Assembly: GCA_963737655.1 (NCBI GenBank)
Contig: CAVTTN010000002.1
Coordinates: forward strand, 5,779,188 to 5,843,187
Reading direction: 5' to 3'
DNA length: 64,000 nt
From: an uncultured Planctomycetota bacterium
GTDB taxonomy: Bacteria > Planctomycetota > Planctomycetia > Isosphaerales > Isosphaeraceae
The translations under genes were made by a program, and so were the position numbers. Of the stretch, positions 20,157 through 42,097 are shown in pieces (positions within the stretch are counted from its first letter, which is position 1; each line of letters starts with the position of its first letter). Under the pieces are notes generated by a model that saw only the letters and a program-made list of their open reading frames with translations, had not been told where the DNA came from and did no database searches.

Positions 20157-21633
20157 TCATGCCCCCGACAGGACGCGATAGAGCACGAACGCCCGGTCCC
20201 ACCGGGTCGTCGGCCCCCTGGCCACCACCTCCACCCGACCCATTCGCTCCAGTTCCGGCAAGTCTCGCTCCCGGGCGATCACCGCGAAGGCCCCCGAGGG
20301 CCGATGGGCCCGCAGGTCGTCCGGCGACGATCGCCAGAGGGCCGGGCGGTTCAGGGAATACAGCCGGATCGGCAGGTCGTGGGGCATCGGGCCGAACGGC
20401 GAGGGGTACGGCAGGCGGTCCCAGTCGTCCTGGAGCAAGACCAGGGGCTCGCCCGGCCGGACCAGCCGCCCGGCCCTCTCGTAGAACGCCCACTCCGCCC
20501 CCCGGCGATCGAGCCGAGGGGCCAGGACGGCGAAACCCGCCGCGAAGGCCACTCCCACACCCAGGGTCGCGACGATCACCCGCCCTCGGAACCGCCCGAT
20601 CGAGGTCCCCCGGCGCTCCCGGAGCCTCTCCAGCCCCAGGGCCGCCCAGATCGACCACGGCGGCAGGGCATGGACGAGGTAATGCGCGTTCTTGACCGTC
20701 GCCAGCGAGACCAGGACCGCCGGCACCACCGCCCACGCCCAGAGCAGCCGGTCCGGCCCGCATCGTTCCCGGACGGCCCTCCTCAGCGAGATCCGGCCGC
20801 CGACGAGGGCCAGGGGGGTCCAGGGGAGCGTCTGCCAGAACGGCGAGGCGAGGTAGTCCGCCCAGGTTTCGCCCGCGAACTGGGTCGGGCGGCTGGCCAG
20901 GCGGTCGGTCACGTGGACCAGCCACAGGCCCATCGCCTCCGGGTGCCGGGCCAGGACCAGCAACGGCCACGCCAGGGCGATCAGGGCCGCCGAGGCGATC
21001 CCGACCGGCGTTTTCAGCGCCCGGAACGTCGGGCCGTCGCGATCCCAGATCAGGACGGCCAGGGTCGCCGCCGCGATCAGGGCCGCGCCGAAGCCGATCC
21101 CCTTGACCAGGGCCGTCCCCCCGATCAGGGCGAAGAACGCCCCCCGCCAGGCGATCGACCCGCCTCGGACCCGGTCCAGGGCCGCCATCGCCCCGACGAT
21201 CAAAGCCGCCAGGAGGATATCGGCCTCGGCCAGACGCCCGCGGAAGGCCGTCCACACGGTCGAGCCCCTGGATCAAACCGGCCCAGAGGCCCACGTCGGG
21301 CCCGAACCTCCGGCCGGCGATCGAGGCCACGCCGAGGGCCAGGGCGATCGCCGCCAGGGCGGAAGGTAGCCTCGCCGAGACCTCGGAAATCCCGCCGGAG
21401 AGTCGTCCCGAGGCGGCGATCAGCCAGGTCCCCAGCGGCGGCTTCTCCAGCCACGGGCGGCCGTCGAGCCGGGGGACCAGCCCGTCCCCCGAATCGAGCG
21501 TCTCCCGGGCCGATTGGGCCCAGATCGCCTCGTGATACGACAGCCGGGACGCCCCCAGGCCCGTCAGGACGGTCAGCGCCGACAGGCCGACCACAAGCAG
21601 GATCGCCCGGCGGGAGATTCCGAGATCGAGCAT
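20157..21633 (-). CDS. GT39/ArnT-like glycosyltransferase (frame broken at 21265-21268 as assembled)
   Basis: The N-terminus MLDLGISRRAILLVVGLSALT...YHEAIWAQSARE...KPPLGTWLIA (in the frame of ORF 17965..21657) continues as GSTVWTAFRGRLAEADILLAAL... (ORF 20157..21257) if one C of CCCC is removed. The protein is polytopic. Confidence 0.8.
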
Positions 21634-24090: not shown

Positions 24091-24368
24091 ATGAACTTCC
24101 TCCATTACGAGATGGACGCCGGACCCGACGATCCTATTGAAGTGTCGATCGACCATCCGGCGAACGTCCAGTTGATGGACCCGCCGAACTTCCGGAACTA
24201 CAAGAACCGAAAGGAATTCCGATACTTCGGAGGGCACGCCGAAGCCTCGCCGGTCCGGCTCCCGCCCCCTCGCCAGGGGCACTGGCACCTGGCCATCGAC
24301 CTGGGCGGGGGCCCGGGTCGATCCGGGCCACGGTGGCGGTGGTCCACGATCCCGAGCCGGGGGAGTGA
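24091..24368 (+). CDS. DUF1883-like protein (frame broken at 24315-24317 as assembled)
   Basis: MNFLHYEMDAGPDDPIEVSIDHPANVQLMDPPNFRNYKNRKEFRYFGGHA...GHWHLAIDLGG. With one extra G the frame ends IRATVAVVHDPEPGE, stop 24366-24368. Confidence 0.65.
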
Positions 24369-24387
24369 CCGTGGTATCGCGGGTCGG

Positions 24388-24690
24388 ATGGCCCGATTCT
24401 TCGTCCGATGCGTCGCGTACGGCCTCCCGTTCGCCGTGCCCGTAGTTGCGGTCCTGGGCCGGGGTCGGAGTCCCTTGGCGGCCGACCTTCTCCTGGTTGG
24501 GTACGCGTCCCTGGGGCTGGTCCAGCTGTTTTGTCGGCCTACTGCGCTTGAGTACCGAGTCCTCATGATGTTGGCGGTCTTCTGGCTGGTGGTCACGGTC
24601 CGGCCGGTTCTCTTTCTGGACCGAGCATCCTCGACACGCGCCGGATGGGGCAGCCTGACTCCGCTTCGCGGGGAGCCATTTGGAACCTGA
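24388..24690 (+). CDS. possible small membrane protein
   Basis: ATG 24388, 100 aa, three hydrophobic segments (FFVRCVAYGLPFAVPVVAVL, LLLVGYASLGLVQLF, VLMMLAVFWLVVTVRPVLFL). It is the tail of listed ORF 24091..24690. Confidence 0.4.
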   Translation: MARFFVRCVAYGLPFAVPVVAVLGRGRSPLAADLLLVGYASLGLVQLFCRPTALEYRVLMMLAVFWLVVTVRPVLFLDRASSTRAGWGSLTPLRGEPFGT

Positions 24691-24739
24691 GCCTCCGTGG
24701 TGGGGTCCCCGGGCCTGGAATTCTGACGGAGTAGGGATC

Positions 24740-25000
24740 ATGAGCCTGCCAACCATCGAGCTGTCCCCCGATCTGGATGCCCGGCTCGAAGCCTTCGCCG
24801 CGAGCCGGGGCGCGAGGAAGGAAGACATCGTCCGCGCGGCCCTGGAGCGGTATCTGGGCGCCAACCCGACGCCGGACTCCGGCCCGGTCCCGCCCGGGGG
24901 TTCGGTGCTCGACCTGGTCCGCGACCTCGTCGGCAAGCACGAGGGGCCGGGGGACCTCTCGTATAACCCGAAATATCTGGAAGGATTCGGTGAGGAGTGA
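24740..25000 (+). CDS. ribbon-helix-helix antitoxin (VapB-like)
   Basis: MSLPTIELSPDLDARLEAFAASRGARKEDIVRAALERYL. Its stop overlaps the toxin start (GTGA). Confidence 0.75.
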   Translation: MSLPTIELSPDLDARLEAFAASRGARKEDIVRAALERYLGANPTPDSGPVPPGGSVLDLVRDLVGKHEGPGDLSYNPKYLEGFGEE

Positions 25001-25407
25001 ACCTGCCGACGATCCTGGACGCCGGCCCCCTCGTCGACCGGCGCGATCGCTACCACGCCTGGGCGACCGCCCGATTCGAGGAGTGCGGCCGGGCCCTCCT
25101 GTGCTGCGAGGCGGTCGTCGTGGAAGCGTGCTTCCTCCTTCGAAGGGTCCACGGCGGCGCCCGCTCCGCCCTGGAATTGGTGGAGCGAGGGGCCGTGTCG
25201 GTCCCATTCCACCTGGAAGACGAGGCCGCCGCCGTGGCCGCCCTGATGGACCGATCCTCCAACGTCCCGATGTCCCTGGCCGACGCCTGCCTCGTGAGGA
25301 TGGCCAAGGTCACCCCGGGTGGGCGCATCTTGACCCTCGATAGCGACTTCCGGATCTACCGGATGGATGGCCGAACTCCTCTGCCCGCGATCTTGCCCGA
25401 TGCCTGA
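24997..25407 (+). CDS. PIN-domain toxin (VapC-like)
   Basis: ILDAGPLVDRRDRYH..., CEAVVVEACFLL, LTLDSDFRIY. GTG start at 24997. Confidence 0.8.
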   Translation: MNLPTILDAGPLVDRRDRYHAWATARFEECGRALLCCEAVVVEACFLLRRVHGGARSALELVERGAVSVPFHLEDEAAAVAALMDRSSNVPMSLADACLVRMAKVTPGGRILTLDSDFRIYRMDGRTPLPAILPDA

Positions 25408-25925: not shown

Positions 25926-28446
<2,521 letters not shown>

Positions 28447-28573: not shown

Positions 28574-28912
28574 ATGGAGACCTCGGCCCGAGACCGCCAG
28601 ATCCTCCGCGACATCCTGAACGACTTCGCGGCGATCCCTTATACCTACGGGGACTTCTGGAAAGAAGTGGTGTTCGACGACGAGAACGACCGCTACCTCC
28701 TGATGTCGCTGGGGAGGGACGTCGATGGGCGGTGGGTCCACCACTGCGTCTTCCACGTCGACCTGATCCGAGGCAAGTTCTGGATCCAGCACGACGCCAC
28801 CGACCGCCCGATCGCCTCGGAGTTGGAGGCCGCGGGGGTGCCCAGGGACCGGATCGTCCTGGGCTTCCGCGAGCCGGAATACCGGGAGTTCACCGGCTAC
28901 GCGGTGGCTTGA
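28574..28912 (+). CDS. xisI: XisI-family protein
   Basis: ILNDFAAIPYTYGD...VVFDDENDRYLLMSLGRDVDGRWVHHCVFHVDLIRGKFWIQHDATDRPIASELEAAGVPRDRIVLGF. ATG at 28574. No xisH partner was seen. Confidence 0.8.
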   Translation: METSARDRQILRDILNDFAAIPYTYGDFWKEVVFDDENDRYLLMSLGRDVDGRWVHHCVFHVDLIRGKFWIQHDATDRPIASELEAAGVPRDRIVLGFREPEYREFTGYAVA

Positions 28913-28992
28913 ACCGAGGATCTTGCGAGGCCCCGGCGATGACCAGGCTCTCCCCCGTCGACGACCGCCCCCGGGCCGAGGAGTCGGCCCCG

Positions 28993-30187
28993 ATGCTCAA
29001 GCGGGTGCGCATCCGCAATTACAAGAGCATCGCCCATTGCGACGTCGAGCTCGGGCCGTTCACCCTGATCGTGGGCCGCAACGGGGCGGGCAAGAGCAAT
29101 TTCCTGGATGCGCTGCGGCTGGTCTCGGAGGGGCTGAACGGATCGCCGACCTGGGCTTCGGAGGCGGATTATCCTTGGGGCGGGATCGCGGATCCCGGGT
29201 GCCTCCTGGAACCCGTAGAGGCCGAGCCTCTGGTCGGCCCTTCCTGGCGGGGATGAGGCGATATACAGAGTGAAGTTAGGAATCCGACCGATCGCGGGAG
29301 TGACGGTGCTTGAGGAGAGCCTGGAGGTCCGCGACCGAGACGGAGGCCGGGCCCATTACGCGTGCGCCGGGGGGCACGTGGTCGAGTCCTCGCAGCCCTT
29401 CTTGCCGCCCGCGGTCCCCGATCGTCTCTACCTGGCTCGGGCCTCGGCCGTCCAAGAATTCCGCCCGGCCTACGATGCGTTTTCGTCGATGGGGTTCTAT
29501 GATCTCGATCCCGAGGTCATGCGCAAGTCGCGGGGCGAAGCGGGCGGATTGATGCTGGCGAGTGACGGGGCGAATGTCGCATCAATCCTGGATTATTTGG
29601 ACCGCGTGTCGCCTCACGGCCGCGAGGGCCTCCGGCCCTGGTTCTCGACGATCATCCCGGAATTTCGAGACGTTCGATTCCAGCAGTACGGGCCGTACAC
29701 GACTCTGGTCTTCGATCGCTCCGAATCCTCCGAAGGTCGGGCGAACGCCTTCTATGCTCACGGAGTGTCCGACGGCACGCTCCGGGCGCTCGGGATTTTG
29801 GTGGCCGTTAACCAGTTGGCAGGAGACGGCTCACCGATTAGACTAGTCGGCATCGAGGAGCCCGAGACCGCCCTGCACCCGGCGGCGGCCGGGGCCTTGA
29901 TGGACGCCCTCCGCGAGGCGTCGTCCCGCACGCAGGTTCTGGTCACGACGCATAGCGCGGACCTGCTCGACCGCTACGATCCCGAGACCGACGGCCTCCT
30001 GCTCGCCACCATGAGCGGCGGGGTGACCCGCCTGAGCGGGATCAGCCCCGCGAGTCGGCGGATCATCCAGAGGCACCTCGACACGGCGGGCGGACTGCTC
30101 CGCATGGATCATCTTGAGCCGGACCCCGCCGACCTCGATCGGCAGGAGCGAGAGCCACCGGGCCCCGGCCCGACGGGAGAAGCGTGA
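28993..30187 (+). CDS. ABC/AAA_15-21-type ATPase of an OLD/PARIS-like two-gene module (frame broken between 29219 and 29253 as assembled)
   Basis: MLKRVRIRNYKSIAHCDVELGPFTLIVGRNGAGKSNFLDALR (Walker A). After the break: IYRVKLGIRP..., SDGTLRALGILVAV, IRLVGIEEPETALHP (Walker B) and VLVTTHSADLL (H-loop). Confidence 0.8.
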
Positions 30188-30190
30188 GCG

Positions 30191-30878
30191 ATGGCGCGCC
30201 TGCGGATCGCGCCCATCGTCGAAGGCGACGGCGAAGTCGAGTGCATCCGCATCCTCCCGGAGCGCCTGTGGTATGAAGAGTTGAACGGCGAATATATTTA
30301 TGTTCGAAGGCCGATCCTGAAGAACAAGGGGACGCTCATCGACGAAGGTGGCCTGAAGAGGGCCGTGGGCATCGCTCTGGAGGAATTGCAGGGCGATTCG
30401 GTGCGCGCCGTCCGAGGACCCCAGCTCAATCCTGATCCTGATCGACGCCGACGACGGTTGCCCGGCGGGACTCGGGCCCCGGCTCCTCGGCTGGGCCCGG
30501 GAGGTGGACGACCGGGCGGACGTCTCGTGCGTCGTGGCGAACGTCGAATATGAGACCTGGTTCGTCGCGGCGTGGGAATCGCTGGCCCGGGCGGGGCTGA
30601 TCCGGCCGGGCGAGGGCGAGGCGCCTCCCTTTCAACCGGAGGGACAGCGGCTGCGGAAGAAGTGGATCGAAGATCGGTTCGTATCCCGAGGAGAGCGAGA
30701 AGGCGCCCGGGGCGGACCTGGGACCCGGGGGCGGTACAGCCCGACCCGCGACCAGGCGGCCATGACGCGGGCGATGGACTTGAGAGCGTGCCGGCGGCAT
30801 TCGCCGTCGTTCGACAAGCTCTGCCGGGAGCTGGCCAGGAGGCTCGGCGGGGGCGCGGAGGAGAGGGTGATCACGTGA
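30191..30878 (+). CDS. DUF4276-like (Toprim-like) partner protein (frame broken at ~30405-30412 as assembled)
   Basis: MARLRIAPIVEGDGEVECIRILPERL..., then in the next frame SSILILIDADDGCPAGLGPRLLGWA...VSCVVANVEYETWFVAAWESL...SPSFDKLCRELARRL. It starts 3 nt after the ATPase stop. Confidence 0.7.
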
Positions 30879-30960
30879 TTTCGTTTCGTAATTCGACCAA
30901 GGCACCGAGCCGGGCAGTCGGCCCCGCCGGGCGGGCCCGCTGGAGTGGGAAGACGCGCTG

Positions 30961-33900
30961 ATGGGGATTGCCCAGAAGGTCTCTCGGGAGTTCGCCGACG
31001 GGGTCCGGGCCCGCGGCCAGTCGTATTTCGCCAAGGGTCGGGTGGCCGTGACGTCGGCCAAGGCCGGCGAGATCGTGGTCGCGAAGGTCCGGGGCACGGA
31101 GGCCTACAAGGTCAAGCTCCGGGTCCGGGGGACGCGGCTGCATGCCTCGTGCACCTGCCCGTACTTCGGGCCCGAGGGGGAGCCGTGCAAGCACCTCTGG
31201 GCCACGATCCTGGCGGCCGACGCCAAGGGCCTGCTCCAGGCGGTGCCGGTCCGGCCTTTGAAGCTCGTGCCCGATGTCCGGTTTCACATCCAGCAACAAC
31301 CGCCGGGCCACTCGCCCCAGGGGCCTCCGCCCGAGAACGGGCCCCCGCCGGGCCCGGGGCCTTCGCCCTATCTCGGCCCTCCGCCCTACGGGCCGCCCTC
31401 GCCGCCCCAGGCCCACGGCCGGGGCACCCGGCCTCCTCATCCGCCCAAGGGCGGGGCGTATCGCGGCCCGGGCCCGGGAGGGGGCAACGGCCAGCCTCCG
31501 TACCGGGGCGGCCCGGGCGCACCCATCTCAAGAACGGCCAGCCCGACCCCTCGGCCCGCCATCGCCACCGGGGCCACGGCAAGCACCCCGGGCCCTCGGC
31601 CGGGCCCGGGCCGCAAGCCCAGGGGCCTCATCGCGGCCAGAAGGCCCGCGACGTCAACGCCAAGAAGGCCGAGGGCAAGAAGGCGTCGCTGTTCTACGTC
31701 CTGGACGCCCCGGCCACCCTGAACCAGAACGCCGTGGTCATCACCCTGGGCCGTCGCCAGCGCAAGCCGGGCTCGGAGCGCGCCGTCCTCCGCCCGTGGT
31801 GGCCGACGAACACCCCGGGCGCCTGGAGGCCCGAGCCCGAGGACCGCGTGTTGATGGCCTTCCTGGAGGAGGCGCAGCCCGCCCCCACGGCCTCGACCCC
31901 GGCCCTGGGCTCGATCGTCAACGGCGCCGTGGGCAACCCCGCCGCCGCGCCGACCCCCCGGCGGTTCGTCCTCCGCCCGGAGGTCCAGGCGCAGATGGTC
32001 GAGCGGCTCTGCCGGACCGGCCGGTGCCGCCTGAGGAGGACCGAGGACGAGGACGATCCGCCCACGCTCCGCTGGGATGACGGCCGCCCCTGGCGGTTCG
32101 TGATCGACGCCCGGGTGGCCGACCCCGCCGCGAAGCGCTGGAGCTGGCGGGGGCCCTGCGCCGCGAGGACGACCGGATGGACCTGGCCGAGCCCCTGGTC
32201 CTCCTGCCCGGCCTGGTCGTCCAGGGCGTGGGCCGCGCCGCCCGGTTCGACGACGCGGGCGTCTTCGCCTGGATGCTCCGGCTCCGCCACGAGAAGGAAA
32301 TGGCGCTGTCCGAGGCCCAGCAAGACACCATGCTCGGCCGGATCCTGGGCGAATCCCGCGTCCCGCCCGGCGAGCTCGTCGAGGGGCTGAAGCTCGAGGA
32401 GGTCGATCTCCCGCCCACCCCCTGCCTGACGATCCGCACCCCCCGGCAGAACTGGGGGTCGGACAACCTGATCGCCGAGCTGGAATTCGACTACGACGGC
32501 GCGAAGGTGGGCTCGTTCCCGCCCGGCAAGATGGCCGTCCAGACCGACCGCCGCCGGGCCATCCGCCGCGACGTGAGGGCCGAGAACCGCGCCAAGGAAC
32601 GCCTGGACGAGCTGGGCTTCCGCGAGGCCAAGGATTTCCGGGTCGAGCCCGGGACGATGGAGGTCGCGCCCAAGAAGGTCCCGGGCGCCACCCGAGACCT
32701 CGTCCTGGAGGGCTGGCGGGTCGAGGCCGAGGGCATCCTCTATCGCCCGGCCAGCGACTTCAAGCTCGCCGTGAGCACCGGGATCGACTGGTTCGAGCTC
32801 TCCGGCCGGGTCGATTTCGGGGGCCAGGAATTGCCCCTGCCGGAGATCCTCGCCGCGGCCCGCCGGGGGGAGACGATGATCGCCCTGGGCGACGGCTCGA
32901 TGGGGATGCTCCCCGAGGACTGGCTCAAGAAATACGGCCTCTTGGCCGACCTCGGCTCGGCCGACGAGGAGGGGAAGCTGCGGTTCGGCAAGGCCCAGGC
33001 GGGCCTGCTCGACGCCCTGCTCGCCGCCCAGCCCGGGAGCAAGTGCGACACCGCCTTCACCAAGGTCCGCAAGAACCTCCACGCCTTCGAGGGGGTCGAG
33101 CCCCTGGACGCCCCGCCCGGGTTCCAGGGCGAGCTGCGCCCCTATCAGGAGGAAGGGCTCGGCTGGCTCGACTACCTCCGCGCCTTCGACTTCGGCGGCA
33201 TCCTCGCCGACGACATGGGCCTGGGCAAGACGATCCAGGTCCTCGCCCTGTTGCAACGGCGGAGGGCCCGGAGGCAGGCCCGAGGGCCGTCGCTGATCGT
33301 GGTCCCGCGCTCCCTCGTGTTCAACTGGCTCCAGGAGGCCGCCCGGTTCACGCCGAAGCTCCGCGTCCTGGACTACACCGGCCCGAACCGGCACGCCCTC
33401 CGCGAGGAATTCCGCCATCACGACCTGATCGTGACCACGTATGGGACGCTGCGATCCGACGTGGTCGAACTCTCCGACATCACCTTCGACTACGCGATCC
33501 TGGACGAGGCCCAGGCGATCAAGAACTCCGAGAGCCAGGCCGCCAAGGCCGCCCGGCTGCTCAAGGCCCGGCACCGCCTGGCCATGAGCGGCACGCCGAT
33601 CGAGAACCACCTGGGCGAGCTCTGGTCGATCTTCGAGTTCCTCAACCCCGGGATGCTCGGCACGGCGTCGGTCTTCAAGAGGAACGCCGGGGGGGCCTCC
33701 GGCCAGGACGAGCAGGCGAGGATGCTCCTGGCCAAGGCCCTCCGCCCGTTCATCCTGAGGAGGACCAAGGGGCAAGTCGTCAAGGACCTGCCCGAGAAGG
33801 TCGAATTGACCCTGTATTGCGACCTCGAACCGGCCCAGAGAGGGCTGTACGAGGACCTCCGGGCCCACTATCGCAACGCCCTGTTGAGGACCGACGCCGA

Positions 33901-34513
33901 CGCCCTGAAGGGCTCGAAGATCGAGGTCCTGGAGGCGCTCCTCCGGCTCCGCCAGGCCGCCTGCCACCCGGCCCTGATCGACCCGTCCCGCGCCGACGAC
34001 GCCTCGGCCAAGCTCGACATGCTCCTGCCGCAACTGGCCGAGGTCGTCGAGGAGGGGCACAAGGTCCTGGTCTTCTCCCAGTTCACCAGCTTCCTCGCGC
34101 TGGTCAAGAAACGGCTCGACGCCGAGGGGCTCGACTACGAATACCTCGACGGCCGGACCCGGGACCGCGAGGCCCGCGTCAATCGGTTCCAGAACGACCC
34201 CAAGGTCCCGATCTTCCTGATCAGCCTGAAGGCCGGTGGGCTCGGCCTGAACCTCACGGCGGCCGAGTACGTGTACCTGCTCGACCCCTGGTGGAACCCG
34301 GCGGTGGAGGCCCAGGCGATCGACCGCTCCCACCGGATCGGCCAGACCAACAACGTCTTCGCCTACCGCCTGATCGCCAAGGACACCGTCGAGCAGAAGA
34401 TCCTCGACCTCCAGCAGAAGAAGCGCGACCTGGCCGACGCCATCCTCAACGCCGAAGGCCGGGGGGTGATCCAGGGCCTCACGCGAGACGACCTGGAATT
34501 CCTCCTGAGCTGA
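30961..34513 (+). CDS. SWIM zinc-finger + SNF2/Rad54-family helicase (two frame breaks as assembled)
   Basis: SWIM CTCPYFGPEGEPCKHLWA, a Pro/Gly-rich linker, and SNF2 motifs LRPYQEEGLGWL, ILADDMGLGKTIQ, LDEAQAIKN, LVFSQFTSFL, GGLGLNLTAAEYVYLLDPWWNPAVEAQAIDRSHRIGQ. Breaks at ~31522 (position uncertain) and 32136-32141. Confidence 0.85.
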
Positions 34514-34573
34514 GCGCCGGCGCGGGCCGGCGATCTCCGAAAAGCGCGTCGATTTGGTGATTGCATCCGGCCG

Positions 34574-34601
34574 GCGACGCCCCGATAATGAGGGGCGTCG
34601 C
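34574..34601. terminator. hairpin downstream of the SNF2 gene
   Basis: 10-bp stem GCGACGCCCC / GGGGCGTCGC with an 8-nt loop GATAATGA, 60 nt after stop 34513. No U-tract. Confidence 0.4.
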
Positions 34602-34729
34602 GGGAGTGTCCGCGAGACGATCGAATCGACCCGGAATCGCTTCGCCTGCGAGAGGGGACGTGCCCATCCCGATGGACCGGGTGCCCGACGGCGCGGCCGC
34701 GACGACGCGGGGCGGGGCTGGAGGGGGCG

Positions 34730-37030
34730 ATGGACGAACGCTCCGCCTCGCTCGGTCTGGACATCGGCACGCTCGGCCCGGGGCTGGATACGGCCATCGA
34801 GACGACCGTCACGGCCGAGGCCCCCACGCCCGGCCGCCTCGATGACGAGCCCGACACCGGCCGGGACGATCCCCGGCGCCCCGGCTTGGTCCGGCTCGAC
34901 CTGTCGTTCCTCCGCCCGTCGAGTCGTCGGGGGAGCCTGGGCAAGATCGGCGACCATGACGTCTTCGACGTCCTGGGCCGGGGCGGGATGGGGATCGTCC
35001 TGAAGGCCCGGGACAAGGCGTTGAGCCGGGTCGTGGCGGTGAAGGTGCAGGACCCGGCCCTGGCCGTCAACCGCCGGAGCCGCTGGCGGTTCTTGCGCAA
35101 GGCGCGAGCCGCCGCGGCGATCAACCATCCCAACGTCGTGACGATCCACGCCGTGAACATCGTCGCCGGCCTGCCGTACCTCGTGATGGAGTACGTCGGC
35201 GGCGGGTCGCTCCGCCAGAGGATCAAGGTCGGGCCGCCTTTGGAGCCGGTGGAGGTCCTGAGGATCGGCCACCAGATCGCCCTGGGCTTGGCCGCCGCCC
35301 ATGCCCAGGGGGTGATCCACCGCGACATCAAGCCGGCCAATATCTTGCTGGAAGCCGGGCTGGACCGGGTGAAGATCACCGACTTCGGCCTGGCCGTCGC
35401 CGGCCTGGCGGTCCCCGAGGGGGAGCGCGTCGCCGGGACCCCGCCGTACATGAGCCCGGAGCAGGTCCGCGGCGAGAAGCTGGACCTCCGCAGCGACCTG
35501 TTCAGCCTCGGCTGCGTCCTCTATGCGATGATCGCCGGCCATTCGCCGTTCCAGGATGCCCGCCCGGCCGAGTCGATCCGCCTGGTCTGCGAGCTGGCTC
35601 CGCCCGCCCCGGCCTCCGCCTGCCCGTGCTGCCCGAAGGGCCTGTCCGACCTGATCCTCCGGCTCCTGAGCAAGGCCCCCGACGACCGCCCCGGCTCGGC
35701 CGCCGAGGTGGCCGAGAGCCTCCGGGCCCTCCTGGTGGAGGCCAACCGCTCCGAGTCCGGCGAGGTCCCGGCCGAGCCCCCTCCGCCCGTCCCCGCCCCG
35801 GCCGAGCCCCCTCCGCCCGTCCCCGCCCCGGCCGAGCCCCCTCCGCCCGCCCCCGCCCCGGCCGAGGCCGCCGAGCCTCGCCCCGAGGCGCCGACCCGGC
35901 CTCCTCGCCCGGTCCTCCTGACCGGGCTGGCCGGCGTGGTCCTGGCCTCGGCGTTCGCCGCCGGGGTCGCCGCCTCCCGCCGCACCGGCCCCGAATCCGA
36001 CCCGGTCGGGCCGGCCTCGACGGCGCCCCGGGCCTGGATCGTCGATCCCTCCGGGGTGAAGGGCCCGAAGGACCTGGCGGCGGCCCTGAGGCGGGCCGGA
36101 CCGGGCGACATCCTCCGTCTCGGCCCGGGCGTCCACGACGGATCGGCCCGGATCGACGACCCGTCCCGGCTCGCGGGCCTGACGATCGAGTCCGACGGCC
36201 GGGCCGTCCTCTCGGCGAGCGATTCCCCGGCGGTCGTGGCGATCTCGGGCGTCCCGGGCGTGACGATCCGAGGGCTGACCATCGAGACCCGGGCGGACCA
36301 GTTCGCCCTCCAGGTCACCGGGGACGTCGACGGGCTGACGATCGACCGCGTGACGTTCGTCTCCCCCGAACGCTCGCAGTGGACCCAGGTTTACTTGAGC
36401 GACGGGGCCCGGGGCTCGGAAGCCCGGCCGATCGTGGTGAAGAACTCGGAGTTCCACGTCGGCAGCAAGGGGGGCGTGACCATCGAAGGGGCCCCGGACG
36501 GCCTGCCGGTCCGCGGCGTCCTCCTGTGGAACAACCGCTTCTTCGGCCCCAAGGAGCAGGTCCACGTCCTCCAGCACGTCCGGGACATCGAGATCCGGGG
36601 GAACCTGTTCATCGGCGGCCAGCCCCTGACGCTCAACCTGCCCGGCTCGAAAAAGGCGCGCCACGTCCGGATCGCCAACAACACCTTCTTCCAGGCCGTC
36701 CGGTGGCTCCACCCGGCCGATTCGGACCCCGAGCAGGAAGGGATCGCGATCGTCAACAACGCGATCATCGCCTCCGACGGCCTGGACCTCGGAGACGGCA
36801 AGCTGACCCGGATGGCCCGGGGAGGGTGGGACTTCCACCACAACCTCTGGGAGCCGGCCAGCGCCGGGAGGGGCGGGTCCGAAGGCCCGATCGCCCGGCG
36901 GAGGGCCGCGCTCCCCGTCCTCTCCCGGGACCCCCAGAGCCCCCGATTCCTCCGCCCGGTCCCGGGCTCGACCCTCTCGCGAGAGGGGGCCGGCGGCGAC
37001 TGGCCGGGCCACGTCGGCGCCTTCCCGTAG
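34730..37030 (+). CDS. membrane Ser/Thr protein kinase with extracytoplasmic right-handed beta-helix-like domain
   Basis: GRGGMGIVLKA, VAVKV, HRDIKPANILL, DFGLA, GTPPYMSPE. These are followed by a PAPAEPPPPV x3 linker, a TM segment (VLLTGLAGVVLASAFAAGV) and repeats of the NN..F / beta-helix type (IANNTFF, IVNNAII). Confidence 0.85.
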   Translation: MDERSASLGLDIGTLGPGLDTAIETTVTAEAPTPGRLDDEPDTGRDDPRRPGLVRLDLSFLRPSSRRGSLGKIGDHDVFDVLGRGGMGIVLKARDKALSRVVAVKVQDPALAVNRRSRWRFLRKARAAAAINHPNVVTIHAVNIVAGLPYLVMEYVGGGSLRQRIKVGPPLEPVEVLRIGHQIALGLAAAHAQGVIHRDIKPANILLEAGLDRVKITDFGLAVAGLAVPEGERVAGTPPYMSPEQVRGEKLDLRSDLFSLGCVLYAMIAGHSPFQDARPAESIRLVCELAPPAPASACPCCPKGLSDLILRLLSKAPDDRPGSAAEVAESLRALLVEANRSESGEVPAEPPPPVPAPAEPPPPVPAPAEPPPPAPAPAEAAEPRPEAPTRPPRPVLLTGLAGVVLASAFAAGVAASRRTGPESDPVGPASTAPRAWIVDPSGVKGPKDLAAALRRAGPGDILRLGPGVHDGSARIDDPSRLAGLTIESDGRAVLSASDSPAVVAISGVPGVTIRGLTIETRADQFALQVTGDVDGLTIDRVTFVSPERSQWTQVYLSDGARGSEARPIVVKNSEFHVGSKGGVTIEGAPDGLPVRGVLLWNNRFFGPKEQVHVLQHVRDIEIRGNLFIGGQPLTLNLPGSKKARHVRIANNTFFQAVRWLHPADSDPEQEGIAIVNNAIIASDGLDLGDGKLTRMARGGWDFHHNLWEPASAGRGGSEGPIARRRAALPVLSRDPQSPRFLRPVPGSTLSREGAGGDWPGHVGAFP
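35771..35860 (+). repeat. 30-bp x3 tandem repeat inside the kinase linker
   Basis: GCCGAGCCCCCTCCGCCCGTCCCCGCCCCG at 35771, 35801 and 35831 (third copy has one T>C), encoding AEPPPPVPAP. Confidence 0.9.
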
Positions 37031-37047
37031 GGTGCATGCAAGGCACC
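37027..37047. repeat. family A REP copy
   Basis: GTAGGGTGCATGCAAGGCACC. Its TAG (37028-37030) is the kinase stop codon. Confidence 0.8.
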
Positions 37048-37090
37048 ATCTTCGGCATTCCACCCCATTCCCGCCCCCAGGAGAGGCCCG

Positions 37091-38419
37091 ATGCGGGACC
37101 ATTCTCACGCTGAGGAGCGGACCCGGGAAGATCCCACGACCCTCGCGGTCCCCAGCGGTTATCACGGGTCGGCGGCCGTCCCCTCGGGCTATCACGCCTC
37201 GGGGAGCGCCGGCCACTCGTGCGGGTCGCCCGAGACCCTCTACGCCTGGGGGCCCGAGCAATCGAGGATCGCCGGGGCCGGCTGGGGGCCGGGCCCTCAC
37301 CTGAAGCCCGGGCCGATCGGCGACCGCCCGGCCGAGCCGTTGAAGGTCGTCCACGTCGGCCCCTGTTTGATGAGAGGGGGCGCCGAGCAGTGGCTCGTGG
37401 AGCTCACCCGGTTCCTCGACCCCTCCCGGGTCCGGGTCCTCCGCACCATCGCCACCCAGCCCGGGGCGATCGACCCGACGTTCGCCGCCGGCCTCTCGAT
37501 CCCGATCGAAAACGGCGGCCCCGACGACGTGACCCGGGCCGTCGAGGAGGCCGACGTCCTCCTGTGCTGGGGAGTCCCTCTCGACGACGTCCTGAACGGC
37601 CACAAGCCGGGCCTCTGCGTCTTCGTGGCCCACGGCGACGGCCCGTACACCCAGGAGCTCGTCCGGCACAGCGGGGGGAGGGCCGACCACTACGTCGCCG
37701 TGAGCCATCGGGTCCGCGACACCACGTTGTTCGGCCTCCCCTCGACCGTGATTTACAACGGGGTGGACAGCGCCCGGCTGGCCCGGACCCGCCCTCGCGA
37801 GGAGGTCCGCGCCGGGTTCGGCTTCGGGCCCGAGGATTTCGTCGTCGGCTACCTCGGGCGGTTCTCGGCCGAGAAGCGCGTCCCCTTGCTGATCGAGGCC
37901 GCCTCGGGCCTGCCCCCCGAGGTCAAGGTATTGCTCGTGGGCTGGGGGGCGCAGCTCCCGGAGCTCATGGCGATGGCCAACCGCCGGATGCCGGGCCGGT
38001 TCGCGGTCGTCACGGCCGGGGGCTACCTGGGCGATTACTACTCGGCGATGGACGCCTTCTGCCTCCTCGGCACCGAGGAAGGCTTCTCGCTGGCCATGCT
38101 CGAAGCGATGATGTGCGGAATCCCCCTGATCGCCACGCCGGTCGGGGCGGTCCCCGAGCTGATCGTCGATCGGATCAACGGCCAGATCGTCTCGCCCAAG
38201 GCCGACGCGGTGAAGGAGGCCATCGACCGCCTCCGCAAGTACCCAAGATGGGCCGCCGGCCTCGCCGCCGAGGCCAGGACCCTGGCCGACCGCCAGGGCC
38301 ACGCCGTCCGGATGGCCCGGGATTATGAAGACCTGCTAGAACGCCTGTGGATGGAGAAGAACGGGGCCAGGACACTTCAAGGCGGATCACGGCCGGGTTC
38401 CGCACAACGAATCTTGTAG
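37091..38419 (+). CDS. GT4-family (GT-B) glycosyltransferase
   Basis: VVHVGPCLMRGGAEQW, GRFSAEKR, TEEGFSLAMLEAMMCGIPLIATPVGAVPELI (E-x7-E). The true start may lie downstream of ATG 37091. Confidence 0.85.
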   Translation: MRDHSHAEERTREDPTTLAVPSGYHGSAAVPSGYHASGSAGHSCGSPETLYAWGPEQSRIAGAGWGPGPHLKPGPIGDRPAEPLKVVHVGPCLMRGGAEQWLVELTRFLDPSRVRVLRTIATQPGAIDPTFAAGLSIPIENGGPDDVTRAVEEADVLLCWGVPLDDVLNGHKPGLCVFVAHGDGPYTQELVRHSGGRADHYVAVSHRVRDTTLFGLPSTVIYNGVDSARLARTRPREEVRAGFGFGPEDFVVGYLGRFSAEKRVPLLIEAASGLPPEVKVLLVGWGAQLPELMAMANRRMPGRFAVVTAGGYLGDYYSAMDAFCLLGTEEGFSLAMLEAMMCGIPLIATPVGAVPELIVDRINGQIVSPKADAVKEAIDRLRKYPRWAAGLAAEARTLADRQGHAVRMARDYEDLLERLWMEKNGARTLQGGSRPGSAQRIL

Positions 38420-38474: not shown

Positions 38475-38536
38475 GTGTGCTCAATCCGTTCGTGGACCGC
38501 TCTAGCCCCGCCGATCGGACCGAGGAGGCCGTCCCG

Positions 38537-41500
38537 ATGAGCGAGCCGACCCCCACCGATTCCGCCCTCACGCCGGGGTCGGACGAAATGGCCGGGCCTT
38601 CGGCCGAGACGGCCCCCCATGCCGAGGCGATCCGCCGATCCGGCGGGGCCACGACCCCCGGCAGGCCTCCGGCCGACGAGGATCCCGCGGCCCGGTTCGG
38701 GCGGTATCAGGTCCTCGAAAGAATCGCCTCGGGCGGCATGGGGGCCGTCTACCGCTGCCGGGACGACGACCTCAACCGCGATCTGGCGCTAAAAATCCTG
38801 CTCGCCGGGCATCGCGACCGACCCGAGCTCGACCGCCGGTTCCTCGAAGAGGCCCAAATTTGCGGCCAGTTGCAGCACCCGGGGATCGTCCCGATCCACG
38901 AGATGGGCCGATCCGACGACGGCCGCCCGTTCTTCGTGATGAAGCTCGTCAAGGGCCGAACGCTCTCGAAATTGCTGCAAGAACGATCCGACCCGACCGA
39001 CGGCTTACCCCAATTCCTGAAGATTTATGAACAAATCTGCCAGGCCGTGGCCTACGCCCATTCCAAGGGCGTGATCCACCGCGATTTGAAGCCCCTGAAC
39101 GTGATGGTCGGCGCGTTCGGCGAGGTCCAGGTGATGGATTGGGGCCTCGCCAAGGTCCTCGGCCGCCGCGACGAAGGGCCGACCGACGCCGGGCTCCAGG
39201 CCAGCACGGTCCGAACGGTCCGCACCGAGGACGGCGGCGACGCCACGGGCCACGGCTCGTTCCTCGGCTCGCCCCCCTACTGCCCGCCGGAGCAGGCCCG
39301 GGGGGACGTCGCCAGCCTGGACGAAAGGGCCGACGTCTTCGCCCTCGGCTCGATCCTCGCCGCGATCCTGACCGGGGAGCCGGCCTACACCGGCCGATCG
39401 TCGCAGGAGTTGCTCACGAAGGCCATCACCGCCGACCTCGCCGACGTCCGCCTCCGCCTGGATCGATCCGGCGCCGAGCCGGAGCTGATCGCGATCGCGA
39501 CCCGCTGCCTCGCCCCGATCGCCGCCGACCGCCCCCGGGACGCCGGCGCCGTGGCGTCGCTGGTCTCGGCCCACCTGGCGGGTGTCCAGGAGCGGTTGCG
39601 GCTCGCCGAGATCGCCCGGGTCGAGGCCACCGCCCGGGCGGAGCACGAGCAAAAGGCCCGCATCCTCCACGAAGCCATCGCCCACGAGGCCCAGGCCCGG
39701 GCCGTCCAGGAGAGGAGGGCCCGGAGGCTCACGGCGGCCCTGGCGGCCTCGATCCTCCTGGCCGGAGCGATCGGCGGAGGCTCCTTCCTCGCCTTCCGGC
39801 TCGACCGCCAGGCCAAGCTCGCCGAGTCCGACCGAATCCTCGGAGAAGCCCTGACCCGGGCCGAATCCGCCCGAGACGAGGCCCGCCGCGCCCCCCCGGG
39901 AGACGCGAACGCCTGGCCCCGGGCCATCCGAGCGGCCGAAAGTGCCCGCGACGCCCTCGCCGGCCGCCCGGCGAGGCCCGAGCTCGCCTCCCGGATCGCC
40001 CAGGTCGTCGCCGACGCCCAGAGGGCCGAGGCCGATCGCCGCTTGGCCGACCGCCTGGACGAGGCCCGCCTCCGGGGTGCCGCCCTCAAGGACAATCACT
40101 TCGACACCGAAGCGATGCTCAGGGACTACGCCGCCGCGTTTCGCGAGGCCAGCCTGTCGCCCGGCGAGCGCCCGGCGTCGGAGATCATCGCCCGGCTGGC
40201 CGGCTCGGCCGAGGCCGCGAGGATCGCCGGGGCCCTGGATGACTGGATCAAATACCCCGCGGCCGAGCCGATTCGTGACGACCTCGTGGCGGTGGCCGAG
40301 GGGATCGACCCGGCCAGCAACGCCCTGCGCCGCGCGATCCGCTCGGCGGATCGGGCCACGCTCGTGGGGTTGACGACCGGCAACGCGGCCCTTCGCCTGT
40401 CGCCGGCCGGCGCGGAGTCGGCCGCCTGGGCCCTGATGCAGATGGGGCTTGCCGAGGAGGCCATCGGCGTGCTGTCCAGGGCCCGCTCGCGCCAACCGGG
40501 CGACTTCTGGCTGAACCAAGACCTCGGGATGGCGCTCGCCGAGGCGTCACCGCCCCGGCTGGAGGAGGCCGCCCGCTACCTGACGGCCGCCGCGGCGCTG
40601 CGGCCGGAAAGTCCCGGCGTCCACCTCAACCTCGGAATCCTGCTGTCGGACACGGGTCATGAGGCGGAGGCAGAAGGACCGTTCCGCGAGGCGATCCGCC
40701 TCGAACCGAAGTACGCCGAGCCGCACTTCAACCTCGGCTACGTGCTGTTGAAGACGGGCCGGGTGTCGGATGCCGAGGCGGAGTTCCGCGAGGCGATCCG
40801 CCTCGAACCGAAGCTGGCCAGGGCGCACTGCAACCTCGGCAACCTGCTGTCGGAGACGGGCCGGGTGTCGGATGCCGAGGCGGAGTTCCGCGAGGCGATC
40901 CGCCTCGAACCGAAGCTGGCCAGGGCGCACTGGAACCTCGGCGTCCTGCTGTCGGAGACGGGCCGGGTGTCGGATGCGGAGGCGTCGTACCGCGAGACGA
41001 TCCGCGTCGACCCAAGGCTCGCGAATGCACATTACAACCTCGGCGTCCTGCTGTCGAGGTCGGGCCGGGTGTCGGACGCGGAGGCGGAGTTCCGCGAGGC
41101 GATCCGCCTCGAACCGAAGCTGGCCAGGGCGCACTCCAACCTCGGCGCCCTGCTGTCGGAGACGGGCCGGTTGTCGGATGCGGAGGCGTCGTACCGCGAG
41201 ACGATCCGCCTCGACCCAAAGGACGCCACGGCGCACTCCAGCCTCGGCGTCCTGCTGATGAGGTCGGGCCGGTTGTCGGATGCGGAGGCGTCGTACCGCG
41301 AGGCGATCCGCGTCGACCCAAGGCTCGCGAATGCACATTACAACCTCGGCGTCCTGCTGTCGAGGTCGGGCCGGGTGTCGGATGCCGAGGCGGAGTACCG
41401 GGAGGTGATCCGCCTCGACCCGGAATACGCCGAGGCGCACTGCAACCTCGGGCGTCTCCTGCGCCGACAAGGTCGCTTCCGCCAAGCCCTGGAGGAGTTG

Positions 41501-42097
41501 AGAACGGGCCACGAGCTGGGCTCGGCTCGCCCGGGATGGACCTATCCTTCGGGGGAGTGGGTCCAGGAATGCGCCTCGCTGATGGCGCTGGAGGAGCGGC
41601 TCCCGGCCCTGCTCCGGGGCGAGGATTCCCCGAAAGACAATGCCGAGCGGTTGACTCTCGGGCAGGTTTGCTACAGCACCAAGAGGTACGCCGCCTCGGC
41701 GCGGTTGCGGGGCGAGGCGATGGAGCGTGATCCCAGGCTCGGCGAGGATCGCAAGGCCGGGCATCGTTACGACGCGGCGTGCTCGGCGGCTTTGGCCGGG
41801 TCGGGCCAGGGGATTGATGAGCCGAAGCCCGATGAGGCCGCCCGCGCCGGGTTGCGGGCGAAGGCTTTGGGATGGCTTCGCGAGGAACTGGCCGCGTGGG
41901 CGAAGGTCGTCGAGGGGGGCAAGGCCGAGGATCGGGCCGTCGTGGCGAAGACCCTGGACCACTGGAAGGCGGACGCCGACCTCGCCGGGATTCGCGACCC
42001 CGAGGCCCTGGCGAAGCTCCCGGAGGCGGAGCGGGAGGCGTTCCGCAAGCTCTGGGCGAACGTTGAGGTGCTCTTGATGGGAGTAGCGGGGCGGTGA
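38537..42097 (+). CDS. Ser/Thr protein kinase with TM segment and nine TPR repeats
   Basis: ASGGMGAVYRC, LALKIL, HRDLKPLNVMV, DWGLAK. These are followed by a TM segment (LTAALAASILLAGAIGGGSFLAF) and nine 34-aa TPR units. ATG 38537 after GAGGAGG; the listed GTG 38477 lies inside the repeat. Confidence 0.9.
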   Translation: MSEPTPTDSALTPGSDEMAGPSAETAPHAEAIRRSGGATTPGRPPADEDPAARFGRYQVLERIASGGMGAVYRCRDDDLNRDLALKILLAGHRDRPELDRRFLEEAQICGQLQHPGIVPIHEMGRSDDGRPFFVMKLVKGRTLSKLLQERSDPTDGLPQFLKIYEQICQAVAYAHSKGVIHRDLKPLNVMVGAFGEVQVMDWGLAKVLGRRDEGPTDAGLQASTVRTVRTEDGGDATGHGSFLGSPPYCPPEQARGDVASLDERADVFALGSILAAILTGEPAYTGRSSQELLTKAITADLADVRLRLDRSGAEPELIAIATRCLAPIAADRPRDAGAVASLVSAHLAGVQERLRLAEIARVEATARAEHEQKARILHEAIAHEAQARAVQERRARRLTAALAASILLAGAIGGGSFLAFRLDRQAKLAESDRILGEALTRAESARDEARRAPPGDANAWPRAIRAAESARDALAGRPARPELASRIAQVVADAQRAEADRRLADRLDEARLRGAALKDNHFDTEAMLRDYAAAFREASLSPGERPASEIIARLAGSAEAARIAGALDDWIKYPAAEPIRDDLVAVAEGIDPASNALRRAIRSADRATLVGLTTGNAALRLSPAGAESAAWALMQMGLAEEAIGVLSRARSRQPGDFWLNQDLGMALAEASPPRLEEAARYLTAAAALRPESPGVHLNLGILLSDTGHEAEAEGPFREAIRLEPKYAEPHFNLGYVLLKTGRVSDAEAEFREAIRLEPKLARAHCNLGNLLSETGRVSDAEAEFREAIRLEPKLARAHWNLGVLLSETGRVSDAEASYRETIRVDPRLANAHYNLGVLLSRSGRVSDAEAEFREAIRLEPKLARAHSNLGALLSETGRLSDAEASYRETIRLDPKDATAHSSLGVLLMRSGRLSDAEASYREAIRVDPRLANAHYNLGVLLSRSGRVSDAEAEYREVIRLDPEYAEAHCNLGRLLRRQGRFRQALEELRTGHELGSARPGWTYPSGEWVQECASLMALEERLPALLRGEDSPKDNAERLTLGQVCYSTKRYAASARLRGEAMERDPRLGEDRKAGHRYDAACSAALAGSGQGIDEPKPDEAARAGLRAKALGWLREELAAWAKVVEGGKAEDRAVVAKTLDHWKADADLAGIRDPEALAKLPEAEREAFRKLWANVEVLLMGVAGR
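40604..41521 (+). repeat. nine tandem 102-bp TPR-coding units, units 2-8 near-identical at DNA level
   Basis: Units such as PKLARAH(C/W/S)NLG.LLSETGR(V/L)SDAEA(E/S)(F/Y)RE(A/T)IRLE. For example, ~41001-41090 and ~41301-41390 are almost identical nucleotide strings. Confidence 0.9.

Follow-up and report, generated by a model that had tools for sequence, protein, structure and literature searches.

Does a two-gene pair lodged between gyrB and a helicase gene on a planctomycete chromosome form an anti-phage module, and if so, is it of a kind already described? The locus lies in a 64,000-nucleotide (nt) stretch of DNA from an uncultured member of the Isosphaeraceae (Planctomycetota; contig CAVTTN010000002.1), which we call the window and whose coordinates are used throughout. 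Gene A encodes an ATP-binding cassette (ABC) ATPase, and gene B, directly downstream, encodes a small protein of the DUF4276 family. An original prediction, made without database searches, had put the pair forward as an uncharacterised conflict system. We conclude, with a probability of roughly 60%, that A and B together constitute one cassette of the HEC-01 type (Hma [helicase-methylase-ATPase]-embedded candidate 01; PADLOC-DB; Payne et al., bioRxiv 10.1101/2024.01.29.577857), in which the ATPase would control a Toprim-type nuclease and which would act as a defence module.

Family and fold of genes A and B

The two genes and their diagnostic motifs occupy the following positions:

28939..30187, + strand: HEC-01A-type ABC ATPase gene (A); 415 amino acids (aa) after frame correction; alternative start ATG 28993
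29074..29097, + strand: Walker A of A, GRNGAGKS, by direct reading; invariant residues in 120 homologues
29843..29866, + strand: Walker B of A, LVGIEEPE, in the OLD-family 'EEPE..LHP' form; invariant in 120 homologues
29936..29956, + strand: H-loop of A, VLVTTHS; T336 and H338 invariant in 120 homologues
30191..30878, + strand: HEC-01B-type DUF4276 gene (B), presumed Toprim-like nuclease; 228 aa after frame correction
30221..30223, + strand: Glu11 of B, which closes strand 1, where Toprim domains have their catalytic Glu; E11 and G12 invariant in 121 members
30444..30452, + strand: DxD motif of B (D85-A-D87), at the end of strand 3; D85 invariant, consensus DADxD

Direct reading finds MLKRVRIRNYKSI encoded from 28993 in A, and IAPIVEGDGEVE, ILILIDADDGCP and ANVEYETWFV in B. 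A ends with a TGA (30185–30187) and B opens with an ATG (30191) on the same strand, leaving a gap of 3 nt in which no terminator-like site was found. The motifs quoted for both genes in the original prediction, together with this spacing, are all where it had placed them. An SDGT signature-like motif lies just 5' of Walker B. The likelier start of A is ATG 28939 (MTRLSPVDD...), 26 nt past the stop of the upstream XisI gene, because the ~18-aa N-terminal extension of the homologues aligns in the window too (tblastn); this extension is predicted to be disordered.

Hidden Markov model (HMM) searches returned the families expected by the original prediction, Pfam AAA_15, AAA_21 and AAA_23 for A and DUF4276 for B, and in PADLOC the frame-corrected proteins returned HEC-01A and HEC-01B. 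A aligned with PDLC04178 (HEC-01A) at 7.9e-113 (375.5 bits), with residues 16–402 covering model positions 5–390 of 399. Its other PADLOC matches were AriA at 1.2e-26 at best, mad3 at 4.6e-25, Old at 5e-23 and GajA at 2.5e-17. B aligned with PDLC04196 (HEC-01B) at 2e-47 (159.7 bits), residues 5–219 covering positions 3–193 of 197, and was matched in PADLOC by HEC-01B models only. Full-length B matched Pfam DUF4276 at 8.4e-10, with 39.6 bits against a cut-off of 30.2, which upholds the earlier family call for the partner gene.

HEC-01 has been described as an ABC ATPase and TOPRIM candidate (10.1101/2024.01.29.577857), and in it, as in the window pair, the ABC ATPase comes first and the DUF4276/TOPRIM-like protein second. 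A and B match HEC-01A and HEC-01B end to end, far above any other model, and are adjacent on the same strand as in HEC-01. Judged by sequence comparison, the pair is a HEC-01 cassette, because it agrees with HEC-01 on every testable point; its kind is already known, and it adds no new class. The window cassette differs in standing outside any Hma system and in its fixed slot after gyrB. These top PADLOC matches, and the hypervariability between conserved flanks described below, fit the architecture of an ATPase with a small nuclease, and the conflict reading, that had been proposed. The word "uncharacterised" did not survive for the system, which was already catalogued as the candidate HEC-01 (bioRxiv 10.1101/2024.01.29.577857), nor for the pair in the sense of unknown: DUF4276 appears in the literature as Toprim/Mad4 (PMC12065111, PMC11464382), and HEC-01 representatives have been tested against phage, one without and one with protection (PMC12881386).

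To locate conserved residues we aligned the window proteins with 119 and 120 homologues, giving an ATPase set of 120 and a DUF4276 set of 121 members. Invariant positions in A are G46, N48, G49, G51, K52 and S53 in Walker A, followed by S277, D278 and T280, by E306, E307, P308 and E309, and by T336 and H338; the window protein retains every one. The AlphaFold2 (AF2) model of A, with a pLDDT (predicted local distance difference test) score of 87.9, matched the ABC heads of SMC, Rad50, RecN and PtuA in Foldseek (E 2e-14 to 6e-12). Because of these matches, the predicted fold confirms A as an ABC rather than an AAA+ ATPase. The Pfam families, together with Foldseek matches to the SMC, Rad50 and PtuA heads at E ~1e-14, likewise bear out the earlier description of an ABC ATPase of the OLD/AAA_15/21 type. 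The family is large, with more than 6,800 relatives of A among the candidates scored.

For B, the invariant residues among the 121 members are E11, G12, D85, C113, E121, F124, W158 and Y182, and all are kept in the window. Its AF2 model (pLDDT 90.9) has a beta-alpha-beta-alpha-beta-alpha-beta core (strand 3–10, helix 13–30, strand 35–38, helix 52–68, strand 78–85, helix 91–105, strand 111–116) and a helical C-terminal part. In this model the invariant Glu ends strand 1 and the DxD ends strand 3, in the core order of a Toprim domain. Faint OLD-like_TOPRIM matches appeared in 3 of the 121 DUF4276 members. The best annotated BFVD match of the model, at rank 2 overall, is a phage RloB-like protein (probability 0.99, E 8.8e-3, template modelling [TM] score 0.46–0.49). 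RloB-like proteins, which partner ABC ATPases in type I restriction-modification/Rlo loci, are thus its best annotated structural neighbours, but Pfam RloB has no sequence match to B, and an E of 8.8e-3 lies above the usual significance line. RloB and DUF4276 have been described together as new Toprim members (PMC12065111), and the literature places DUF4276 in the Toprim superfamily and connects it with Mad4 of MADS (PMC12065111, PMC11464382). B is most likely a Toprim-type metal-dependent nuclease, an assignment that draws mainly on PMC12065111 and 10.1101/2024.01.29.577857 and with which the predicted fold agrees. Clustering the relatives of B at 50% identity gives 2,920 clusters for E <= 1e-3 and 1,815 for E <= 1e-10; among the matches listed, nearly all are stand-alone proteins of ~200 aa.

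The slot downstream of gyrB in related genomes

The neighbours named in the original prediction lie where it had put them:

25926..28446, + strand: gyrB, the conserved 5' flank of the slot (tblastn with GyrB of L001, L083 and L167)
28574..28912, + strand: XisI gene (Pfam XisI 5.7e-32), an orphan between gyrB and the pair
30961..34513, + strand: SWIM-SNF2 helicase gene, the conserved 3' flank of the slot (Pfam SWIM); 65–88% identical to the 1179–1249 aa single genes of L001 and L083

The synteny set was assembled from contigs encoding homologues, and a GyrB contig scan gave one close relative (L001) among 80 loci. In L166 and L167, the closest homologues with usable contigs, the order is gyrB-xisH-xisI-A-B-SNF2. 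In the Isosphaeraceae-like contigs L083 and L081 it is gyrB-A-B-SNF2, and in L083 the gyrB stop overlaps the start of A. Hence four Isosphaeraceae-like contigs (L081, L083, L166 and L167) hold an intact pair between gyrB and SNF2. L084, a distant member of the Planctomycetia (Pirellulales-like), reads gyrB-A-B and then unrelated genes; its GyrB is 54% identical to that of the window and 80% identical to that of L002.

L001, an Isosphaeraceae metagenome-assembled genome, has the order dnaN-gyrB-[1.25 kb]-SWIM-SNF2, and the gap contains recognisable relics of the pair, LVRLVGIEEPATAFHPAAPGAWMDA from the Walker B region and VLFRDADNDCPGLLAPAL from the DxD region. Its GyrB is 69–83% identical to that of the window across segments, and its dnaN is 79% identical. 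The pair is absent from the gyrB locus of L002, a close relative of L084, and from ~20 other planctomycete gyrB loci. Presence at the locus in relatives, as raised by the original prediction, was therefore found in L081, L083, L166, L167 and L084; L001 has a relic and L002 has none. The pair is a long-held occupant of its slot and not a fresh insertion. The earlier picture of a pair wedged into a core neighbourhood, suggesting recent insertion, gives way to a post-gyrB slot that holds pairs in several relatives and a relic in another.

In the wider family, gyrB lies near the pair in 0 of 80 metagenome loci. Other members on long contigs stand alone after an mraY, AMMECR1 or beta-eliminating lyase gene, and no integrase or surrounding defence island was present there. 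Two variant states may reflect partial decay of the cassette. At L085 (8001–9651) the ATPase follows mraY in the dcw cluster and the downstream gene encodes 123 aa with no DUF4276 match, and at L169 (7001–8260) the ATPase gene is solitary, DUF4276 being missing.

We compared the divergence of the cassette with that of its flanks. Among the gyrB-linked genomes, dnaN, GyrB and SNF2 are 71–88% identical, whereas A is 45–57% and B 43–56% identical. Between L166 and L167, GyrB is 86% identical, A 52% and B 43%, and A and B of the distant L084 are no more different than those of close relatives. Sliding nucleotide identity falls from 75–89% to 43–55% within ~150 nt at both cassette borders; inside the cassette, high nucleotide identity is confined to islands at Walker A and Walker B. 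A neighbour-joining tree (no support values) unites the window with P0008, P0010 and P0016 in one clade of 17 and leaves P0020 and P0029 outside it.

The two genes also travel together. Of the 80 metagenome loci, 69 have B directly 3' of A; the other 11 have no B match, and in 8–9 of these the contig breaks off before B could fit. Across 67 loci, the pairwise identities of A co-vary with those of B (r = 0.915, Mantel p ~0.001). Read at the level of sequence, this means that a linked two-gene unit has diversified rapidly, or had its alleles replaced, while its place on the chromosome stayed stable; divergence with such sharp borders is the expected signature of a hypervariable conflict cassette, typical of immunity genes.

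The GC content of the cassette (0.64–0.70) differs slightly from that of the flanks (~0.70) and gives no clear signal of foreign DNA. An imperfect 22-nt direct repeat (19/22), at 28971–28992 and 30905–30926, brackets the cassette almost exactly. It is probably due to chance, because no comparable flanking repeat was found in the five related loci L081, L083, L084, L166 and L167.

Frame breaks and neighbouring genes

Comparison with intact homologues (tblastn) found exactly one frame break in each gene of the pair, as the original prediction had noted. The break in A, one extra base somewhere between 29226 and 29240, shows in tblastn with P0002–P0004 as two frames joined by a single shift. That in B lies between ~30400 and 30417, and dropping base 30413 restores the frame. 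Apart from these single shifts, in-frame stops are absent from both genes.

Breaks are common in the surrounding genes. In gyrB the coding sequence runs through three frames, with two breaks near 27000–27044 and 28135–28141 (tblastn with intact GyrB of L001, L083 and L167). SWIM-SNF2 has at least two, one somewhere in 31275–31674 and one near 32150, and a 231-aa gene upstream of dnaN (20689–21532) has one. The total is at least seven breaks in ~14 kb, or ~1 indel error per 2 kb in the stretch. The pair, with 2 breaks in 1.9 kb, is above the stretch average and within the single-gene range (gyrB, 2 in 2.5 kb). The single break in A and that in B are most likely assembly errors, because the essential gyrB, SWIM-SNF2 and another neighbour show a similar density. 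The suspicion of assembly error, already voiced in the original prediction, is borne out by the broken neighbours, gyrB among them, and frame breaks of this assembly should not be taken as gene decay.

Between gyrB and the pair, ~130 nt separate gyrB from xisI, and no match to XisH was found in the window. XisI is absent from L081, L083, L084 and all 80 of the metagenome loci, and L001, L081 and L083 lack both xisH and xisI. XisI is a neighbour and not a required part of the cassette.

On the other side of the pair, the helicase core of SWIM-SNF2 matches PADLOC DpdE/ZorD at up to 8.7e-146, with coverage of the generic core alone, and no further genes of the Dpd or Zorya systems accompany it. 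Its linker, especially 31250–32150, is proline-rich and low in complexity, with a GC content of 0.75–0.78, and varies in length between genomes.

Further small variable cassettes occupy the dnaN-dciA gap (24091–25407), where relatives carry a small-gene and PIN pair. Genes in this gap and downstream of SNF2 are:

24091–24690: DUF1883 protein (Pfam 3.6e-22)
~24740–25000: RHH (ribbon-helix-helix)/CopG-like gene, then an overlapping 136-aa gene (24997–25407), in a toxin-antitoxin-like arrangement
34730–37030 and 38477–42097: two Ser/Thr protein kinase genes downstream of SNF2, with a glycosyltransferase gene between them

The 136-aa protein (24997–25407) has no Pfam match. The second kinase carries a long tetratricopeptide repeat (TPR) array, and the kinase and glycosyltransferase genes are not common to the relatives' loci. 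On the minus strand, a 2202-aa open reading frame (ORF; 31694–38302) lies antisense to SNF2 and the kinases. The 70% GC content produces many other long overlapping ORFs in the window, and this one is likewise an artefact of it and no gene.

Related systems, proposed mechanism and alternatives

Several known systems pair an ABC ATPase with a nuclease. In PARIS, too, the ABC ATPase and the Toprim nuclease come from two genes, in that order, and the ATPase serves as sensor and scaffold; by analogy, PARIS is the best mechanistic model for the window pair. The nucleases differ, AriB being a DUF4435 Toprim protein of ~35 kDa whereas B belongs to DUF4276 and has no AriB match. As an identity for the pair PARIS was rejected, with DUF4435 matching 0 of the 121 DUF4276 members and AriA scoring 1.2e-26, well below HEC-01A. 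OLD class 1 proteins and GajA of Gabija have in common with the pair the OLD-type EEPE..LHP Walker B and a Toprim nuclease with Glu and DxD. In them, however, a single polypeptide carries both ATPase and Toprim, and Gabija has the UvrD-like GajB in addition; the window and all related loci have two separate ORFs, and no UvrD-like gene is adjacent.

MADS Mad3-Mad4 also combines an AAA_15/21-type ABC ATPase with DUF4276 and is grouped with ABC ATPase and TOPRIM systems (PMC11464382, PMC12065111). It was set aside at 83.2 bits against a cut-off of 420 for NCBIfam MAD3 (NF047739), with adjacent methyltransferase and mad genes absent. Septu (PtuA/PtuB) was rejected as well: B is a DUF4276 protein with no HNH match, and PtuA resembles A at the level of fold only. 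The SNF2 neighbour raised the idea of embedding in an Hma system, which was rejected. Downstream, the methylase and the Hma ATPase are absent, SNF2 is a conserved core gene, and its match to the HmaA model is weak (2.8e-17), the DpdE/ZorD helicase cores matching better.

The mechanism we propose for the cassette is drawn by analogy with PARIS, OLD and Gabija (PMC11464382). A would act as an ATP-driven sensor or scaffold that keeps B inactive. On a cue from a phage or another mobile element, the state of the ATPase would change, and B would be freed or activated. B would then cut DNA or RNA through an acidic site formed by Glu11, Asp85-x-Asp87 and Glu121, and this cleavage would stop the invader or the infected cell. 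In the Isosphaeraceae-like genome the cassette occupies a long-used slot between gyrB and SWIM-SNF2, where relatives have strongly divergent alleles.

A number of observations weigh against an ATPase-controlled Toprim nuclease acting in defence. Foldseek with the B model returned nothing below 1e-3 against the PDB, and the structure prediction advocated by the original prediction delivered the Toprim strand order and acidic residues without a PDB neighbour at that level. The B profile had no matches among PDB sequences, and hhalign against a GyrB Toprim alignment covered 13 columns at a probability of 0.7%, with the DxD strand alone aligned. There is no defence island among the window genes downstream of SNF2, nor at L085, L168, L169 or L170. 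PARIS is often found on phages or satellites, whereas the window pair has no close homologue on viral contigs (IMG/VR), the best match being 25% identical. Finally, the deposited genome itself has the break in A: P0001 is a truncated call of 293 aa, 100% identical, on a 7.6-Mb contig. The error therefore sits in the public assembly and not in the extraction of the window.

That truncated fragment is all that the deposited annotation calls, and with one break in each gene, and the cassette plainly eroded to a relic at this position in L001, the pair could be a decaying pseudogene remnant in this genome, both frame breaks being real. We regard this as quite improbable. Breaks are similarly dense in the essential gyrB (2), SWIM-SNF2 (at least 2) and one more neighbour, there are no in-frame stops beyond the single shift, and all family-invariant residues are kept. 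Somewhat less doubtful, though still unlikely, is a selfish or addiction-type cassette, or one that acts against plasmids or other non-phage elements, kept at the gyrB flank because its loss is costly rather than for any protection from phage. It would suit a pair that stands alone among housekeeping genes with neither integrase nor defence island, on a dnaN-gyrB backbone that also carries small toxin-antitoxin-like cassettes (the RHH gene and its partner; XisH/XisI). It would also suit the original HEC-01 screen, which saw no protection against BASEL and classic coliphages (10.1101/2024.01.29.577857), a result that equally counts against a defence role. Yet a HEC-01 from a cold seep did protect E. 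coli against one or more of T4, T5 and T7 (PMC12881386), and the characterised relatives of this architecture (PARIS, OLD, Gabija and MADS) are all anti-phage (PMC11464382). Moreover, an antitoxin-like small protein is absent from the cassette, and its loss is evidently possible, L001 being down to a relic.

A housekeeping role is far more remote still. Here the pair would be a repair or replication accessory of the dnaN-dciA-gyrB cluster, a functional analogue of RecF (ABC ATPase) and RecR (Toprim domain). Such a role would explain why the pair directly follows gyrB in the window, L081, L083, L166, L167 and the distant L084, why the gyrB stop overlaps the ATPase start in L083, and why recF is absent between dnaN and gyrB in these loci. 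But A reaches only 34.5 bits against the RecF cut-off of 172 (TIGR00611), in the P-loop region only, and RecF was rejected as its identity. The distribution is patchy, with 0 of the 80 wider-family loci near gyrB, ~20 planctomycete gyrB loci including L002 that have no pair, and loss in L001. The pair is 43–57% identical where GyrB is 73–86% identical, and a cassette this divergent between conserved flanks therefore does not fit a housekeeping role. The core function that the original prediction had named as its counter-case is thus contradicted by the RecF score, the patchy distribution and the hypervariability.

Within the reading of the pair as a HEC-01 defence cassette, we also considered a more speculative idea about the slot. 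In Planctomycetota, HEC-01 cassettes might dock preferentially at the gyrB 3' flank, possibly co-transcribed by read-through from gyrB and coupled to gyrase expression or DNA-topological stress, with the gyrB end as a homology arm for allele exchange. Read-through is suggested because the gyrB stop and the A start overlap in L083, and at least two orders use the slot (Isosphaeraceae-like genomes and the Pirellulales-like L084). We consider this very unlikely to hold as a whole; if it were true, the pair would be triggered, for example, under phage attack on gyrase.

The unusual trait of this HEC-01 cassette is that the same post-gyrB slot is kept in related planctomycetes and about half of its sequence is different. 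Alleles ~50% divergent in a fixed slot, together with the relic, are independent evolutionary support for HEC-01 as a putative conflict system. For a family of disputed activity, these loci provide a natural comparative data set, with ready allele panels for specificity.

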